A stretch of DNA of 64,000 nt from Malacoraja senta (Eukaryota): assembly GCA_038087875.1 (NCBI GenBank), contig CM075987.1:23004001-23068000 (forward strand). The letters run 5' to 3'. Numbering within the stretch: position 1 is the first letter of the stretch; each line of letters opens with the position of its first letter. Below the pieces are notes generated by a model. The model was given only the letters and a program-made list of their open reading frames with translations. It searched no databases and was not told the origin of the DNA. This document shows, piece by piece, positions 15,934-61,064 of this stretch. Both the position numbers and the translations under genes were made by a program.

Positions 15934-16150
15934 CTCAGGCCGCGGCCACGGTGCTCCCCCAACCCCGGTCCCTGCTGCCCTACAGCCCGCCTCCTGACGA
16001 GGCCGATTGGAGTTGGGGCCCGAACGGATCGCTTTCACTGTGGCGAGCCGAGCTGTCCGTTAAAAGTGAGCGCCATTTTGATAATAAGTGTGCGCCATGT
16101 TGGTGAGGTCTTGCCTCTTGATAAGGTCGCGCCATGTTGGTGAGGTCTTT
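15934..16150 (-). promoter_or_regulatory. MED22: Putative MED22 promoter and non-coding first exon (small CpG island; donor GAG|gtgagt at 15934/15933) with three YY1-like CGCCATNTT motifs
   Basis: CpG-rich patch upstream of the acceptor at 13318. Motifs cgccattttg (16071), cgccatgttg (about 16093) and cgccatgttg (about 16130). Confidence 0.6.
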
Positions 16151-17567
16151 CCATCTCCATAGAGATGTGGCGGGAGGAACTGCAGATGCTGGTTTACACC
16201 GAAGACAGACACAAAATGCTGGAGTAACTCAGCAGGACAGGTAGCATCAAATGAAGAAGGGTCTCGACCCGAAACATCACCTACATCATTTCTCCAGAGA
16301 TGCTGTGTGACCCGCTGAGTTACTCCGACGTTTTGTGTCCATCTAGCATCAAATGACAGACAGGCAGCAAATAGACAAATGCAAAATACAAAATCAAAAA
16401 TTGTTGCGGAAAGGAAAGAAAAATGTAATAGTCTTCATATCGCTTGAATATTATGCAAAAGCAAAGCAATTTTAAAGTGTAATTATTGTATTGGTAGGCT
16501 CTAATTCTAGCTATGGTTTGGAGGATAGCAAACAGCAGGAGGAATTAATGCATCCACAAGTTCATGTTATGACTTAAAATTCAAGTAGTGAAATATAAAT
16601 ATGTATCAGAATAGAACAGTGAATAGAACCATGATAATGAATTCTATAATGACATCTTAATATTTGTTGGAGACCATCTAGCTGACAGCTTACCATAAGA
16701 AACAAATGAATGACAAAATGAGGTTGTATTTTATGCTATTTTATTATAATTCTACAAAGTAATGACAGGTTTTGTAATAACAAACTCTATCCATAGACTT
16801 AAGCAGACAAGAATGACAAAAATCAGTCGAGACTTACAATCCTTATTTACAATTTGCCTGATAATTATAGTGATACAAACTGGCAATCTTTTTTTCATTT
16901 CAGAGAAACTTAGAAAATTCAGTTTAGAACTGAACTGCTCTATCTTAATTTCTTCCTTTTTCAGAATAATGTCAGACAATATTGAACAAGCTAATCTGCT
17001 ACACAATATCTTCCTGTGAATGAGCTTTAAAAGCTGTCTTTATTTCTGAAGGAACAATTCAATACACTTAGAAAAATATATATCTTTGGCTTGCATGTTT
17101 TACTTCATAATTCTTCTCAGACATCGATGAGGTCTGCTGGCTCCAAGCCTTTGTTCAAACCATTTACATACGTGAACACATGGACACGTCTTTAATAGAC
17201 CTGGCAAAGGTGGTAAGTTGTCCAGTGCTGCTGTCTGTGAGATGTAGCTGCTCCACAATGATGAAGTATTGGCAGGATATTTCCAGTCAGGATACTGTAT
17301 GACTTGTGGAAGCGAACTACAATTTGGTATTTTCATGCACATGCTACCCTTATCCTTTCTGGAATAGACAGGCTTTTGAACCTCTTGCTAATGCAGATCA
17401 TATGGACTACAGGCTTAATGTGTCATCCGCAGTCGTTTAAGCTTATTGGTGGACAATGTCATACTTTGTGGAATTTCCCTCAGATCAGCTGAACTCAAAT
17501 AAAGAGGTAATTCCAGGGACCCCAGTGATTTTCTCCTTCACCAAAACTTTCTATGTTGGCAACAGTA

Positions 17568-19907: not shown

Positions 19908-20010
19908 CTCTTCCACGTAGGCCGCAGCTCGGTTGCTATGGAAACTCGAGCATGAGTCCGGCTCTGCGTCGCTTCCGGAAATCATCAGTCGAGTCACGTG
20001 GCACTGACCA
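19690..20010 (-). promoter_or_regulatory. DNLZ CpG island/promoter with ETS-like (CTTCCGGAA, about 19972) and E-box (GTCACGTGGC, about 19993) motifs
   Basis: High CpG density around exon 1; motifs are visible in the sequence. Confidence 0.55.
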
Positions 20011-22459: not shown

Positions 22460-22589
22460 GTTCCACCCTGCAGTTCCAGTGAGGTTCCAGTGAGGGCGCG
22501 GTCCCTTTAAATTGAAGCCACGTGTGAACTGGCGCGGGTATTACCGGGCATGCGCGACTTCTACGCCCTCTTTCTATGTCCCCGCCGCC

Positions 22590-29222
<6,633 letters not shown>

Positions 29223-38800: not shown

Positions 38801-40887
38801 GGGCTCCATGCAGCTTCTCTCTGCTAGTGCCTCGATTAGCTGCAGTTTCCATTTCCGACGTTGAACCTTAAGGGAAGGGAGAGCGAGAATGACAGAGACA
38901 GGCACGTAGATCAACATGGCAAGACTCAGCCCCACACCCAATTGGACACTTGGACTCGCACAAGGAACTGATCTGTAACACAACTGGATCCAGATTACAG
39001 GGGTAACAGGCAACCGATAGGTCCTTCTCTGTAGTTCCCTTCCCCAGTGCAAGTGTCAGCCGGAGTTAGTCAGACCATTACACCCTGGACATCCAAGCTC
39101 CAGAATGACCATAACCCTACAATGGTCATTGGCTCCATGGTCTCTGACACTGCACACAGGCTGCCAGACCCATCCTAAACCCAGACACCTCACAGCGACG
39201 GCCATCCCCACTCTGATCCCGCCAGCACGTAACAAAAGTGTTTCACTGTACCTCGGTACACATGACAATAAACCGAAAGCTAAACTAAACTAAAAAAAAC
39301 TAACCCCACTGACCAGTGCAGTCACCAGCAAAGCCCACGCTGTCCCCTGACCCCACACAGTGACTACAGAGCATTGTTTAATTAGCAACACACTGACACA
39401 GGGGAACAGCAAGCAAATATGCCAAACAAATAAAACACACTCTCATCATGCGCATGGACCCCCCCTCAGTGCGGTGAGTGAACATGAACCGAACGGCGGA
39501 GATACCTGCCAGGTTCCGAGACCAAAGGTGGCGACCGGGATCAGAAGCAGGGTCCACTTCAGGAAGGAATCATTGGTGCCCTCAGCAACCGTCGCCGTGG
39601 AGCTGCATGCCACATTGTGCCCGACAACAACCCCTGAACAATAAACACAGTCTGAGTAACAGCAGAGCCTGGGGTTGTTTATCACTGCCCTCCACTCCAT
39701 CCGCCCTGTAACCGAGCGCACGTTCTGGAGGGCTATAGAGGAAGAGGAACAGATTGTGCACAGAACTTCCTTACCTTTGGTTTTTCCTCTGGCAGAGCAC
39801 AAGATCAAGTGGCCATCTCTGTAGACCTTTGCTGAGCAGTTATTCAATATCTGTGGAATAGAGAGGAGACTGAGGAAAGGTTTGAAGGGACCTGGCATTA
39901 GTGCTAGTGTATGTGTGCGTGTGTGTGTATATATACATTTGCTCTACTGTCCATCCTTTGCTCTCACACTGATTCCAGCTCAGAAGGTCCATCCTCTTGG
40001 TCCATCCTCCTAAATCTATGGTACACAATGACAGATCTGTGCACTCCAGCACTGTAGCCTAGTGGTTTACAGTGATGGTCCTCGATCCATCAGTGCTGTA
40101 CCCGTGTTTAGAGGCAGATTCACCTGTATTCACCAAGGCTCTATCCATGACATGCAGTGACAGACCAATGACCCAGGTGCAATCCTACTCTCCAGTGCTA
40201 CATGTCTGGAGTTTGCATGTTTGTGCTGCCATCATGTCGGATCTCCCCTGTACCCGTATACTTCATACATGAATAAAGTGAAAGAGGCTGGGATGATTTG
40301 AAGGATGAAAATATATATATATATATATATTTTTAAGGCTTAATAAACTGATAACCAGGACAGGCATGTACCCAGAAATAACCAGCAATTATCCTATTGT
40401 GCTTGCGTTTGGCTTGCTTGTATTCGTGTGTAGTATCGTCTGATTTAATTGGAGATCATGCAAACAAACGCTTTTCACTGTTCATGACAATAATGAACCT
40501 AAACCCGGCAATTCATTTAACGAGGAGGGGGGGGGGGGGGGGGCGCAATATAAAGTAATGGAATGGGATTCATTCTGTGCAACCAGCGCTGCGAATGACC
40601 AGCCCTTTACTGGGAATAGGAGGCTTCATCAAGCGGGGAGGGGGGAGGGGGGCAGCGACGGTGCACCAGGCCGCATGTGTGTGTCTGTGTCTGTGTCTGT
40701 GTCTGTATCTGTGTCTGTATCTGTGTCTGTGTCTGTGTCTGTGTCTGTATCTGTGTCTGTATCTGTGTCTGTATCTGTGTCTGTACCTGTGTCTGTGTGT
40801 GTGCCGGCCCCGAGCTGAGCTGAGCCGAGCTGAGCCTAGACTCACCCAGAGCCCGAGGAGCCGCGACCCGCGGACCGCCCGCAGCAT
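29806..40887 (-). CDS. SURF1: Surfeit locus protein 1 (cytochrome c oxidase assembly factor): exons 40887-40846, 39850-39775, 39633-39506, 38866-38784, 38607-38416, 36633-36561, 34631-34469, 33991-33910, 29872-29806; 301 aa
   Basis: [33 protein letters not shown]...|[22 protein letters not shown]...[27 protein letters not shown]...[44 protein letters not shown]. All GT-AG, phases consistent (906 nt). Exons 1-2 (presequence) are less certain. Confidence 0.93.
29992..32252 (-). mobile_element. Penelope-like retroelement (RT + GIY-YIG endonuclease), 5'-truncated, young, in SURF1 intron 8, with 12-bp TSD ATTTAAACACCA
   Basis: 590-aa ORF 31975-30203, preceded in frame by IKPADKGG, containing [33 protein letters not shown] and [18 protein letters not shown]. 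One frameshift in a C-run near 32050. TSD at 29980-29991 and 32253-32264. Confidence 0.95.
30050..30091 (-). ncRNA. Minimal type-I hammerhead ribozyme motif in the Penelope 3' repeat
   Basis: Minus strand reads cagt-CTGAAGA-A-GGGT(TTCG)GCCC-GAAA-CGTT-acc: catalytic core, stem II, and a palindromic stem III. Confidence 0.6.
32855..33570 (+). mobile_element. Degenerate CR1 LINE fragments in SURF1 intron 8
   Basis: Decayed RT sequence (..SKAFD.V.., [13 protein letters not shown]) plus the CR1 3' end shared with other copies. Confidence 0.75.
35232..36529 (+). mobile_element. Rex1/Babar-like LINE 3' fragment (frameshifted RT) in SURF1 intron 6
   Basis: [14 protein letters not shown]...[16 protein letters not shown]...[10 protein letters not shown]...[12 protein letters not shown]...[12 protein letters not shown]. 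Tail AATAAA(CTTGA)n. Confidence 0.88.
37250..38185 (+). mobile_element. Older degenerate Penelope-like RT fragment in SURF1 intron 5
   Basis: [27 protein letters not shown] and [14 protein letters not shown] peptides, homologous to the 30203-31975 ORF but with stops and frameshifts. Confidence 0.88.
38188..38375. repeat. About 4 imperfect tandem copies of GAGGGGCTGAATGGCCT(T/C)..CCTGCTGTTCC (about 45-50 bp period)
   Basis: Visible direct repeats just downstream of the SURF1 exon 5 donor. Confidence 0.75.
40678..40802. repeat. Hexanucleotide microsatellite (GTGTCT/GTATCT)n in SURF1 intron 1
   Basis: Directly visible. Confidence 0.97.
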
Positions 40888-40942
40888 TCTGCACACAAAC
40901 CGGAAGCACGGCCACGCTTCCGCCGGCGTCAGCTGACCACAG

Positions 40943-41581
40943 CTGGGCCGCGGACCACGTGACCCCCCCCCACCCGCGGGACACGTGACCCGTTCTGGGC
41001 CGCGGACCACGTGACCCCCCCCACCCGCGGGACGCGTGACCCGTTCTGGGCCGCGGACCACGTGACCCCCCCCACCCGCGGGACACGTGACCCGTTCTGG
41101 GCCGCGGACCACGTGACTCCCCCCCACCCGCGGGACACGTGACCCGTTCTGGACCGGGGAACCACGTGACCCCCCCCCTGCCGACGGCGGGACACGTCAC
41201 CCGTTCTAGACGGGGGACCACGTGGCCCGGGTGCTGGGCGGGGACCACGTGACTGGGCCTAGACCGGTGGACCACGTGGCCCGGGTGCTGGGCGGGGACC
41301 ACGTGACTGGGCCTAGACCGGTGGACCACGTGGCCTGGGTGCTGGGCGGGGACCACGTGACTGGGCCTAGACCGGTGGACCACGTGGCCTGGGTGCTGGG
41401 CGGGGACCACGTGACTCTGGGCCTAGACCGGTGGACCACGTGGCCTGGGTGCTGGGCGGGGACCACGTGACTGGGCCTAGACCGGTGGACCACGTGGCCT
41501 GGGTGCTGGGCGGGGACCACGTGACTGGGCCTAGACCGGTGGACCACGTGGCCAGGTTTACTGGGCTGAGGACCACGTGAT
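40943..41581. repeat. Compound GC-rich minisatellite (about 51-bp unit x4-5, then about 54-bp unit x6) forming the SURF1 upstream region; two CACGTG per unit
   Basis: Units CTGGGCCGCGGACCACGTGACCCCCCCCACCCGCGGGACACGTGACCCGTT and GGACCACGTGGCCTGGGTGCTGGGCGGGGACCACGTGACTGGGCCTAGACCGGT. Confidence 0.95.
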
Positions 41582-41732
41582 TGTCCGGGCTGATGGACAG
41601 GACGTTGACCCCGTGCCGGGTTTCTTGGTTTCTTGCTCCTCCAAAATATTCCAATGGAATTTAAACTGGAGGTGGTGGAGGGAGGACTTAAGCCAGAAAG
41701 GGTTTTTGGGAAGAAAGAGCTACCTTAAATTT

Positions 41733-42256
41733 AGTCAAGTCAAGTCAAGTCACATTTATTTATATAGCACATTTAAAAAACAACTCTCGTTGGCCACAGT
41801 GCTTTACATTTGTTATAAGAATAGCACAAATAAAACAAACCACATACATATATACATGTAGCCCTCACTCAGAGGACGTCAGGAAAGGCTTGGGAATATA
41901 GATAAGTCTTTAGTCTTGACTTAAATTTAGTTGCATCTGGTTGGGTAACTATAGTAGGGTGGAGATTATTCCATGCTTTAATTGTGCAGGGGAAGAATGA
42001 ATTGCTGTACACATTTGTCTTGGTAGCTGGAATGTCAAATTGGATCGAATGCCTAATTGGTTTGGTGTAGGTTTTGTAATCTATGTCGAGCTGGCCATTT
42101 AACATTTTGTAAAAACAGGTCAAACGGTGAGCTTCACGTCTGTCTTGGAGAGGGTTCCACCCCAGTGAATTCAGAAGGTTGGTAACACTCGCTTCTCTCT
42201 CGTAGGTATTAGTAAGAAATCGAGCTGCCTGTCTTTGGACACGTTCGATGGAAGAT
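41733..42256 (-). mobile_element. L2/CR1-group LINE 3' fragment inserted in the SURF1 CpG island; the same 3' tail occurs at about 22265-22400 (+)
   Basis: IERVQRQAARF...LLNSLGW..LQDRR...SFFP.TIKAWNNL...FKSRLKTYLY peptide; tail TGTGCTATATAAATAAATGTGACTTGACTTGA. Confidence 0.85.
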
Positions 42257-43199
42257 GGGTCCAGGCCGATGACCACACGAGCCGCGGGACACGTGACTCC
42301 GGGTCTGGCGGTGGCAGCATCCTGTCTGCGCTGCTCTGCCTCCTCCAGCGTCCACTGACCTCTTAACCTCAGCCCTGTTTAAACCTCAGACCGTCTCTGC
42401 TGATCACGGTTTGTTCATGTCACGAGTTTGTTGGACGTGGTCCTGATATTTAAGGTCAGCCGGACAAATGTGAAGAGGAAAGACACAAAGTCCTGGAGTA
42501 CCTCAGCAGGTCAGACAGCTGTATCACCAGTCTGAAGAAGGGTCTCAACCCGAAACATCGCCTATTCCTTCTCTCCAGAGATGCTGCCTGTCCCGCTGAG
42601 TTACCCCATCATTTTATGTCAATCCACAAGATGTATGTTAGATTGGGTTAAGTTCAAGAGGACACCTGCTATCTAAAAATTCAGATCTGCGCAAGGGGTA
42701 ACACACTAAAAGGAAAATATGACATCAGAATTCTTCTACATTTTCCTGCACATTGATGACAAAGTCGGGACTCTTGTAACTTAACGTGTTTGTTGACATT
42801 CAATGCGTAAAAAAGTACATCATGCTCATGGTAGGCTCTATTCGTTGGTTGATACAAGGTATTTTTGGTCATTATATTAATTAACATTATTCACAATAAC
42901 ATCCAATCACTTCAAGCATCATGTGTATTTAACTGTCACGTTCCACTCATATCCTGACTCCTTTTCTCCAGGGATGCTGTCTGACCCACTGAGTTACTCC
43001 AGCTTTTTGTGTCTGTCTTCATTGCAAAATAAGCTTCCTGTTGTGCAGGAAGGAACTGCAGATGCTGGTTTAAACCAACGATAGACACAAAAAGCTGGAG
43101 TAACTCAGCGGGACAGGCAGCACCTCTGGAGAGAAGGAATGGGTGACGTTTCAGGTCGAGACCCTTCCTCAGACTGGTATGGGATAAGGGAAACAATAG

Positions 43200-59221: not shown

Positions 59222-60829
59222 CAGTGCCCTCCATAATGTTTGGGGCAAAGACCCATCATTTATTTATTTGCCTCTGACTCCACAATTTGAGATTTGCAAT
59301 AGAAAAAAATCACATGTGGTTAAAGTGCACATTATCAGATTTTATTAAAGGCCATTTTTATACATTTTGGTTTCACCATGTAGAGATTACAACTGTATTT
59401 ATACATAGTCTCCCCCCCCCAAATTTCAGGGCACCATAATGTTTGGGACACATGGCTTCACAGGTGTTTGTATTTGCTCATGTGTGTTTAAATGCCTCCT
59501 TAATGCAGGGATAAGAGAGCTCTCAGCACCTACTTTCCTCCAGTCTTTCCATCACATTTGGAAACTTTTATTGCTGTTTATCAACATGAGGACCAAAGTA
59601 GTGCCAATGAAAGTAAAATAAGCCATTATGAGACTGAGAAACAAGAATAAAACTGTTAGAGACATCAGCCAAACATTAGGCTTACCCAAATCAACTATAT
59701 TGGAACACCATTAAGAAGAAAGAGAGCATTGGTGAGTTTACTAATCGCAAAGGGACTGGCAGGCCAAGGAAGACCTCCACAGCTGATGACAGAAGAATGC
59801 TCTCTATAACAAAGAAAAATCCCCAAACACCTGTCCGACAGATCAGAAACACTCTTCAGGTGTGGATTTGTTAATGACCACTGTCTGCAGAAGACTTCAT
59901 GAACAGAAATAAAGAGGCTACACTGCAAGATGCAAACTACTGGTTAGCTGCAAAAATAGGATGGCCAGGTTACAGTTTGCCAAGAAGTACTTAAAAGAAC
60001 AACCACAGTTCTGGAAAACGTTCTTGTGGACAGATGAGACGAAGATTAACTTATATCACAGTGATGGCAAGAGCAAAGTATGGAGGAGAGAAGGAACTGC
60101 CCAAGATCCAAATCACCTCATCTGTGAAACACGGTGGTGGGGTTGTTATGGCCTGGGCATGTATGGCTGCTGAAGGTACTTGCTCATTTATCTTCATTGA
60201 TGATACAACTGCTGATGTTAGTAGCATAATGAATTCTGAAGTGTATAGACACATCCTATCTGCACAAGTTCAAACAAATGTCTCAAAACTCATTGGCCAG
60301 CAGTTCATTCTACAGCAAGACAATGATCCCAAACATACTGCTAAAGCAACAAATGAGTTTTTCTAAGCTAAAAAATTGTAAATTCTTGAGTGGCCAAGTC
60401 AATCACGCGATCTGAACCCAATTGAGCATGCCTTTTATATGCTGAAGAGAAAACTGAAGGGGACTAGCCCCCAAAACAAGCATAAGCTAAAGATGGCTGC
60501 AATACAGGCCTGGCAGAGCATCACCAGTGAAGACACCCAGCAACTAGTGATGTCCATGAATCACAGACTTCAAGCCGTCATTGCATGCAAAGGATATGCA
60601 ACAAAATACTAAACATGACTACTTTCATTCACATGACATTGCTGTGTCCCAAACATTATGGTGTCCTATGTATCAACACTAATTTCTACATGGTGAAACC
60701 AAAATGTATAAAAATGGCCTTTATTAAAATTTGACATGTGATGTTTTCTATTACAAATCTCAAATTGTGGAGTACAGAGTCAAATAAATAAATGATGGGT
60801 CTTTGTCCCAAACATTCTGGAGGGCACTG
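59222..60829 (+). mobile_element. Tc1/mariner transposon, full length (about 1.6 kb), long IR/DR-type TIRs, TA TSD, inactivated transposase (about 59586-60612)
   Basis: TA|CAGTGCCCTCCATAATGTTTGGG ... CCCAAACATTCTGGAGGGCACTG|TA. Peptides LWTDETKINL, VKHGGGVVMAWACM, LQQDNDPKHT and WPSQSRDLNPIE, with stops and frameshifts. Confidence 0.95.
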
Positions 60830-61064
60830 TATATCTAAGCATGAATCCTATTCCAATTGAAAGCAATTGTTACCACCTGCAAACGACTGGCTGAGGGGGG
60901 AGTCACCCTGCTAATGGTTACTTAAATTCCAGACCCAAATGCACCCAATCTGGTACTGAGAACTGGCAACTGTGGTCCACAGTCTCCAAAGGATGCCCAC
61001 TTGATGAGAATTGGGAAGACAATCACATTACCGAGCAGAGTTGGGAGTTGCTAATAAGTTTGAT

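Follow-up and report, generated by a model that had tools for sequence, protein, structure and literature searches.

A compound minisatellite with 22 canonical E-boxes lies in the proximal promoter of SURF1 in Malacoraja senta

Results

The window analysed here, a 64-kb stretch of the Malacoraja senta genome, carries MED22 on the minus strand, followed by DNLZ (minus), RPL7A (plus), SURF1 (minus) and, beyond 62.4 kb, PPP1R26 (minus). Together these genes form a rearranged surfeit cluster (10172-63999), in which DNLZ (zf-DNL, E 2e-22) is placed between MED22 (Pfam Med22, E 3e-18) and RPL7A, and PPP1R26 follows SURF1 by about 21 kb. Four later exons of SURF1 match the Pfam SURF1 family on the minus strand (E 1e-6 to 0.02). 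The SINE and LINE content of the window resembles that of a skate, ray or shark. The coding part of its exon 1 (40846-40887, minus strand; ATG at 40887-40885) comprises 14 arginine-rich codons that resemble a mitochondrial presequence. Upstream of this ATG, positions 40943-41581 are occupied by a tandem array with 22 perfect CACGTG E-boxes and two one-base variants.

The SURF1 transcription start was located with one RNA run of a close relative (X23), of which about 5% was read and 27 reads matched. All but one of these reads (26/27) leave the genomic sequence at 40846 and continue as exon 2 (39821-39850), save for a single difference; the relative differs from the window by A>G at 40874 in 27/27 reads and by a 5-nt insertion in five reads. 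The main start cluster lies at 40890-40894 on the minus strand, where 13 of the 27 reads end, five at 40890 and eight at 40894, each in a loose end that we take to be the template-switch adapter. Template switching may also mark prematurely ended copies. Read depth falls from 27 (40881-40887) to 5.6 (40895-40901) and 1 (40916-40957), and is 0 past 40964; a single one of the 27 reads reaches the first monomer of the array, to approximately 40960. In the relative's RNA the start is 62-66 bp below the first E-box, and the array sits about 60-690 bp above the main SURF1 start. With starts at 40890-40894 and a lone read reaching it, the array is upstream promoter DNA and not leader. An RNA-level role was set aside, as 1/27 reads reaches the array, and a coding role was rejected, as the array's frames are repetitive, with no connection to the spliced SURF1 frame. 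The SURF1 leader of about 3-7 nt in this RNA recalls the TISU-type short-leader initiation of some mitochondrial genes; the TISU-type consensus fits the SURF1 ATG context poorly.

Two opposed putative ETS-type sites (40900-40922), CGGAAG at 40901-40906 on the plus strand and at 40917-40922 on the minus strand, were called by a motif scan with what we take to be the ETS consensus, and they may form the core promoter between start and array. ETS-type sites are a feature of the mammalian SURF1/SURF2 promoter. The region is a CpG island (windows within 40501-41750 have G+C of 0.61-0.74 and CpG o/e of 0.60-0.91), and the motif scan of 40500-41750 gave no TATA match. The YY1 patterns scanned were unmatched at the SURF1 start, where weak sites could escape such a scan. 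A homotypic E-box cluster built from repeats in the SURF1 proximal promoter, the core of the original prediction, is borne out by the anatomy of the array and by the position of the start; use of another promoter by SURF1, named beforehand as a case against it, did not occur, as the start in the close relative lies beside the array. The accompanying idea that the array had taken the place of the compact promoter known from mammals is not supported, since a start and two ETS-type sites persist between array and ATG, and SURF2 is what was not found upstream. The array is an extension of the core promoter, not a replacement of it.

CACGTG occurs 30 times in the 64-kb window, and 22 of these occurrences fall within 40956-41579; the remaining eight are no more than chance predicts. 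Dinucleotide shuffles of the whole window gave 7.82 +/- 2.74 occurrences, and 0 of 100 shuffles reached 30. Tandem Repeats Finder resolves the region into a repeat of period 51 with 5.4 copies (40943-41228) and one of period 54 with 6.9 copies (41206-41580). The edge of the array is 56 bp and its first E-box 69 bp above the SURF1 ATG, close to the 55 bp first estimated, and the manual count of about 22 perfect copies proved exact. Perfect sites follow each other at 25-29 bp, as described before, except where two intervals widen to 51 and 56 bp, each of them occupied by an in-register site with one mismatch (41033 and 41193). Since both wide gaps hold such variant sites, the array consists of 24 monomers in total, 25-30 bp apart, with a spacing of 26-27 bp in 18 of the 23 intervals. 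With periods of 51 and 54, above the 10 bp asked of a regulatory promoter VNTR of the TRIB3/TYMS type, the units are repeated head to tail, and the CACGTG consensus is perfect in 22/24 monomers.

The array has two parts. Array A (40943-41205, no strand assigned) comprises five dimeric units of 52, 51, 51, 52 and 57 bp that are built of approximately 26-bp monomers. It has 76% G+C and a CpG o/e of 0.99, and carries the two one-base variants together with eight perfect CACGTG, every one in the form CACGTGAC. Array B (41206-41581, likewise without strand) comprises seven units of 53-56 bp, the last of them diverged, which are dimers of 27-bp monomers (71% G+C, CpG o/e 0.64). Its 14 perfect CACGTG are alternately CCACGTGG (7) and CACGTGAC (6) or CACGTGAT (1), and it includes six GC boxes, the anticipated GGGCGGGG being present in 6/7 of the 54-bp units. 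The flanks of all 22 perfect sites are thus CACGTGAC in 14, CCACGTGG in seven and CACGTGAT in one. The alternation of flanks noted earlier is real in the 54-bp array; it does not extend to the 51-bp array, where 8/8 perfect sites are CACGTGAC. A decayed monomer at the far edge (41582-41620, no strand; weak alignment) has CCCGTG at 41610.

The monomers fall into four classes with a common E-box core, which are identical at 14-18 of 27 positions when compared ungapped. In a 15-row monomer alignment, mean column identity is 52% and four of the five invariant columns are inside the E-box. Random 27-mers at 73% G+C contained CACGTG in 0.87% of 200,000 trials, and none of the six other tandem arrays of the window contains it. 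The excess of CACGTG over chance is due to the copying of one motif, not to 22 independent events. An orphan monomer with CACGTGAC (42273-42297, no strand; family D3) lies past a probable 5'-truncated LINE 3' end (about 41730-42260, minus strand; ends approximate). Over 25 nt it shares 84% identity with the second half of unit A and, with 16/16 identical positions (E 0.01), is the sole array-like match below E 0.5 elsewhere in the window. An outlying site had been announced near 42289, and CACGTGAC was found at 42290. The LINE said to separate it from the array is in part confirmed, by a short-repeat tail and by an open frame whose translation resembles what we take to be a reverse-transcriptase C-terminus, but Pfam matched no family in 41730-42260. 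The orphan beyond the LINE suggests that array monomers once extended further out and predate the insertion. The simplest history would be a single monomer, an early duplication with divergence, and then two separate dimer amplifications.

Among the five deep monomer classes, changes amount to 0/6 for the E-box columns versus 8/11 for the flanks (binomial P 0.03), and among all 14 variants to 2 versus 12 (P 0.04 Poisson, 0.08 binomial). This excess conservation of the E-box hints at selection on the sites, as far as the monomer alignment can tell; the signal is a modest one, given an alignment built around the E-box and monomer classes that are kin. The CpG is kept in all 24 in-register sites, and CATGTG and CACATG do not occur in the array. 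With 65 CpG, the array has a CpG o/e of 0.76 versus 0.45 for the window, a retention that weighs little because the array is young and homogenised. At one CpG position that is not part of an E-box, 4/7 B units have TpG.

A comparison with four public sequencing runs covered 40804-40994, which takes in the first unit of array A, and their contigs address array A. In one run (X1), which may derive from the source animal, four contigs show high identity to array A; one spans a head-to-tail junction and one reproduces the window's edge unit. An assembly artefact was rejected for array A on the grounds that these contigs reproduce units and junction. Record 1 of the same run (38 bp, five differences, unlike on both sides) was assigned to another locus. 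Depth over exact 31-mers of array A was 14.8, 16.0 and 14.4 per window copy in three contigs and 7.4 in the fourth; a stretch of 2.8 window copies had a depth of 41.3 versus 14.4 and 16 for single-copy stretches. These depths leave no room for many copies of array A elsewhere. A genome-wide satellite, another case that had been named against the array, was not encountered: for array A at 31-mer identity, the low-copy depth in X1 rules out a dispersed satellite or SINE unit, and the 64 kb contain one orphan. In X2 and X9, 0 contigs matched at 40804-40994, which is no proof of absence. Genotypes of X1 with fewer A units fit better (log SD 0.08-0.17, versus 0.31 for window/window), a fit of four depth values from simplified contigs that is too thin to call polymorphism. 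Runs of six organisms contained, among the 20 matches listed, 0.04-0.42 of 69 words; since the proximal 139 bp alone make up 0.15-0.21 of the 31-mers, such shares cannot show the array in relatives. The array is probably lineage-restricted.

On the gene strand, CACGTGAC reads GTCACGTG, presumably a USF-type flank, and we take CCACGTGG to be a MYC/MAX-type site. The CLEAR box is a two-sided TCACGTGA that is best bound by MITF, and double MITF sites have a more-than-additive effect, according to the accessible text of PMC7427332. Not one of the 22 perfect sites has the two-sided TCACGTGA, and 15 have the flank on one side alone. Because this defining feature is absent, the array falls outside the CLEAR element class, and the CLEAR-type flank proposed at the outset is a weak reading. 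The same applies to the suggestion that the G-runs form quadruplexes: the array contains no canonical motif (four G3 runs, loops up to 7), five motifs with loops up to 12 are found in array B, and G4Hunter peaks at 1.84 in array A (gene strand) and 1.32 in array B.

SURF2 was sought head to head with SURF1 in the 145 plus-strand stop-to-stop frames of at least 40 aa between 41.6 and 62.4 kb. After 49 frames were dropped as mostly repeat, the remaining 96 gave no match, in a scan that detected three of four control exons. Sub-cut-off Pfam matches on plus-strand frames (E 0.0004-0.09) were dismissed as chance or as a Tc1-like transposon near 59.2-60.8 kb. A search with four short SURF2 motifs produced seven scattered matches in the window, none of them convincing. 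As far as this test sees, SURF2 appears not to be head to head with SURF1 here, and for want of this partner the locus does not belong with the bidirectional promoters of the mammalian type.

Two neighbouring promoters have one E-box each. The DNLZ promoter (19972-20000) carries a single GTCACGTG E-box 23 bp above an ETS site, and the RPL7A promoter (22519-22555) has a single CACGTG 71 bp above the ATG together with an NRF1-like site. These single motifs at a like distance imply that one E-box is the ordinary starting state. The probable MED22 promoter (16070-16154) contains a 19-bp period of 3.3 copies with three CGCCAT YY1-like sites, a tandem duplication that is a smaller parallel of the SURF1 array.

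Discussion

Here, we describe a locus at which the array anatomy, the shared ancestry of the monomers, their position relative to the start, the gene order and the low copy number are established; from these we infer descent from a single ancestral E-box, methylation state, binding and effect. Our preference, held with slightly better than even confidence, is a tandem amplification of the promoter's ordinary E-box, in which the array would extend an unmethylated island, proximal copies would be bound and extra copies would add little. The array would descend from one monomer, about 26-27 bp long, that contained a USF-type CACGTG and lay 60-70 bp above the SURF1 start. After its duplication the copies would have diverged into four classes, and two rounds of dimer amplification (51-52 bp and 54 bp), through slippage or unequal exchange, would then have produced a locus-specific compound minisatellite. 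As part of the unmethylated CpG island, the array might be occupied on at least its proximal copies by ubiquitous bHLH-ZIP dimers, USF first and MAX-family proteins on CCACGTGG, that would help to hold the promoter open. The position of the start and most of the output would depend on the ETS sites and the first copies, and further copies would contribute in a saturating manner, under about 1.5-fold. Such an array would be tolerated and perhaps mildly constrained, and would not be a tuned rheostat. On balance, the analysis points to an array that is probably bound and would have a small or saturating effect.

We give limited credence to a copy-number rheostat comparable to TRIB3, the view taken in the original prediction. 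It would require a polymorphic array and a SURF1 output that rises with each further bHLH-ZIP dimer bound; neighbouring sites are 2.4-2.9 helical turns apart, which would place every second site on the same face, and the USF-type and MAX-type sites of array B would make two separate rows. The location of the array 60-690 bp above the start, the modest excess of E-box core conservation and the 26-27 bp spacing of 18/23 intervals are all consistent with such a device. So are the X1 contig whose depth of 7.4 per copy is half that expected and the better fit of genotypes with fewer A units, although this allele fit comes down to four depth values from simplified contigs. As a constitutive assembly factor, however, SURF1 would not obviously need a wide range of expression. 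Precedents are the stepwise gain from 1 to 5 copies at TRIB3, the 24 repeats of CDH2 and the double MITF sites, each as its available text describes it, but the in vivo effect of the TYMS repeat is small in the accessible text of PMC4504634. The apparent loss of SURF2 prompts another proposal, which we consider unlikely, namely that the array acts as a one-sided chromatin barrier: E-boxes and GC boxes would extend the CpG island, and USF and Sp1 would shield the start from upstream silencing, to the benefit of the stability of expression and not its level. USF does act at the chicken HS4 barrier. The finding of no SURF2 among 96 plus-strand frames in 41.6-62.4 kb agrees with this proposal, as do the probable LINE some 150 bp past the array, the 33% of the upstream 20.8 kb that is repeated within the window, and the description of the human SURF1/SURF2 region as a silencing-resistant UCOE in the accessible parts of bioRxiv 10.1101/626713 and PMC9764128. 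Yet USF has 0 occurrences in those parts of either UCOE paper, other promoters of the window carry one E-box or none amid the same repeats, and the orphan past the LINE suggests that E-box monomers were present before the insertion.

It is quite improbable, in our view, that the array is an inert repeat, methylated or packed into nucleosomes past its first copy, in which the palindromic core persists as a seed of duplication. G+C-rich minisatellites are common, and single strands of the array fold somewhat better than shuffles (z -3.05), and any two cores can pair. Six other arrays occur in the window, 0 of them with an E-box, and the non-E-box CpG position that reads TpG in 4/7 B units would suit a methylated repeat. 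None of the 24 E-box CpG has decayed, however, array A has retained its CpG o/e of 0.99, and the array adjoins a start that is active in the close relative's RNA. We are also doubtful of a composite account, in which, following rearrangement of the surfeit cluster and the departure of SURF2, amplification of a single E-box module would have restored the lost half of the CpG island as a selected 24-site array, combining a one-sided USF/Sp1 barrier with a setting of SURF1 level by array length and with USF-type and MAX-type sites on opposite helix faces.

Amplification of an ordinary E-box, our preferred explanation, has several human counterparts. The hTERT repeat VNTR2-1 reportedly has enhancer activity, as a PNAS paper of 2021 is said to have found. 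In the available text of PMC2915984, many of its 42-bp repeats contain canonical CACGTG; VNTR2-1 is intronic, whereas the SURF1 array is promoter-proximal. The 33-bp VNTR of the TRIB3 promoter, whose output rises stepwise from 1 to 5 copies, is similar in that a promoter segment with one factor site was copied in one lineage beside the gene start (PMC7425993, accessible text). It differs in having 1-5 copies of a C/EBP-ATF site where SURF1 has 24 monomers around CACGTG, and its polymorphism, single-copy ancestry and dose effect have been demonstrated, whereas the SURF1 array is known from sequence. The 28-bp VNTR of TYMS, with USF-1 sites, produces 2-4-fold differences in reporters and less than 1.5-fold allelic imbalance in people; it shares with SURF1 a similar unit size, a USF-type site, a housekeeping gene and site-losing variants (PMC4504634, accessible text). 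Its 2-9 copies are in the 5' UTR, while the SURF1 array stands above the main start with about three times more copies. The CDH2 intron-1 VNTR (24 repeats in 528 bp) likewise has several factor sites per unit and a lineage-specific motif amplification; in contrast to SURF1, its sites are for steroid receptors, RBPJ and ZEB1, and it is an intronic enhancer of a regulated gene with tested binding (PMC12064536, accessible text). Thousands of VNTRs, enriched at promoters, are associated with expression or methylation in the available text of bioRxiv 10.1101/2020.12.16.423078.

As far as the available texts describe it, the mammalian SURF1/SURF2 promoter with its SRF-UCOE shares with this locus a TATA-less CpG island at SURF1. 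ETS-type sites near the start are common to both; a head-to-head SURF2 was not found here, the YY1 patterns scanned, which could overlook weak sites, had no match at the start, and a 640-bp array lies upstream. Our literature search, which covered few subscription journals, returned no promoter minisatellite from a shark or skate, no SURF1 E-box array and no report on this locus. Human repeats in which a factor site is multiplied, CACGTG and USF sites among them, have already been published, as the accessible texts attest, which makes the implied novelty of a repeat-built factor-site promoter smaller than first thought. Tandem repeats that multiply factor sites are a known route to expression variation, and the compared cases are human; in a cartilaginous fish, 22 canonical CACGTG at 60 bp from a housekeeping gene's start make an unusually dense case. 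If polymorphic, the array would provide natural alleles of graded dose to show whether a CpG-island promoter is tuned or saturated by its number of E-boxes; if not, it would show the extent of promoter remodelling that a housekeeping gene can bear. The absence of the mammalian SURF1/SURF2 pairing from this locus is now on record. If the reading as a selected array were true, nature would here have replaced a lost bidirectional partner by a tandem repeat, and the locus would provide a graded series relating bHLH-ZIP site number to output.

Other repeats and possible RNA genes were noticed in the window. SURF1 intron 1 holds a 6-bp microsatellite of 21 copies (40676-40803) at a distance of 40 bp from the first splice donor. 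A degenerate Tc1/mariner-like transposon (59230-60830) has weak HTH and DDE_3 matches and, by eye, apparent inverted ends. Box C/D snoRNAs are known from RPL7A introns of other vertebrates, and three RPL7A introns of the window (26610-26710, 27480-27570, 28250-28320) have a similar short motif set that, by eye, is box C/D snoRNA-like.
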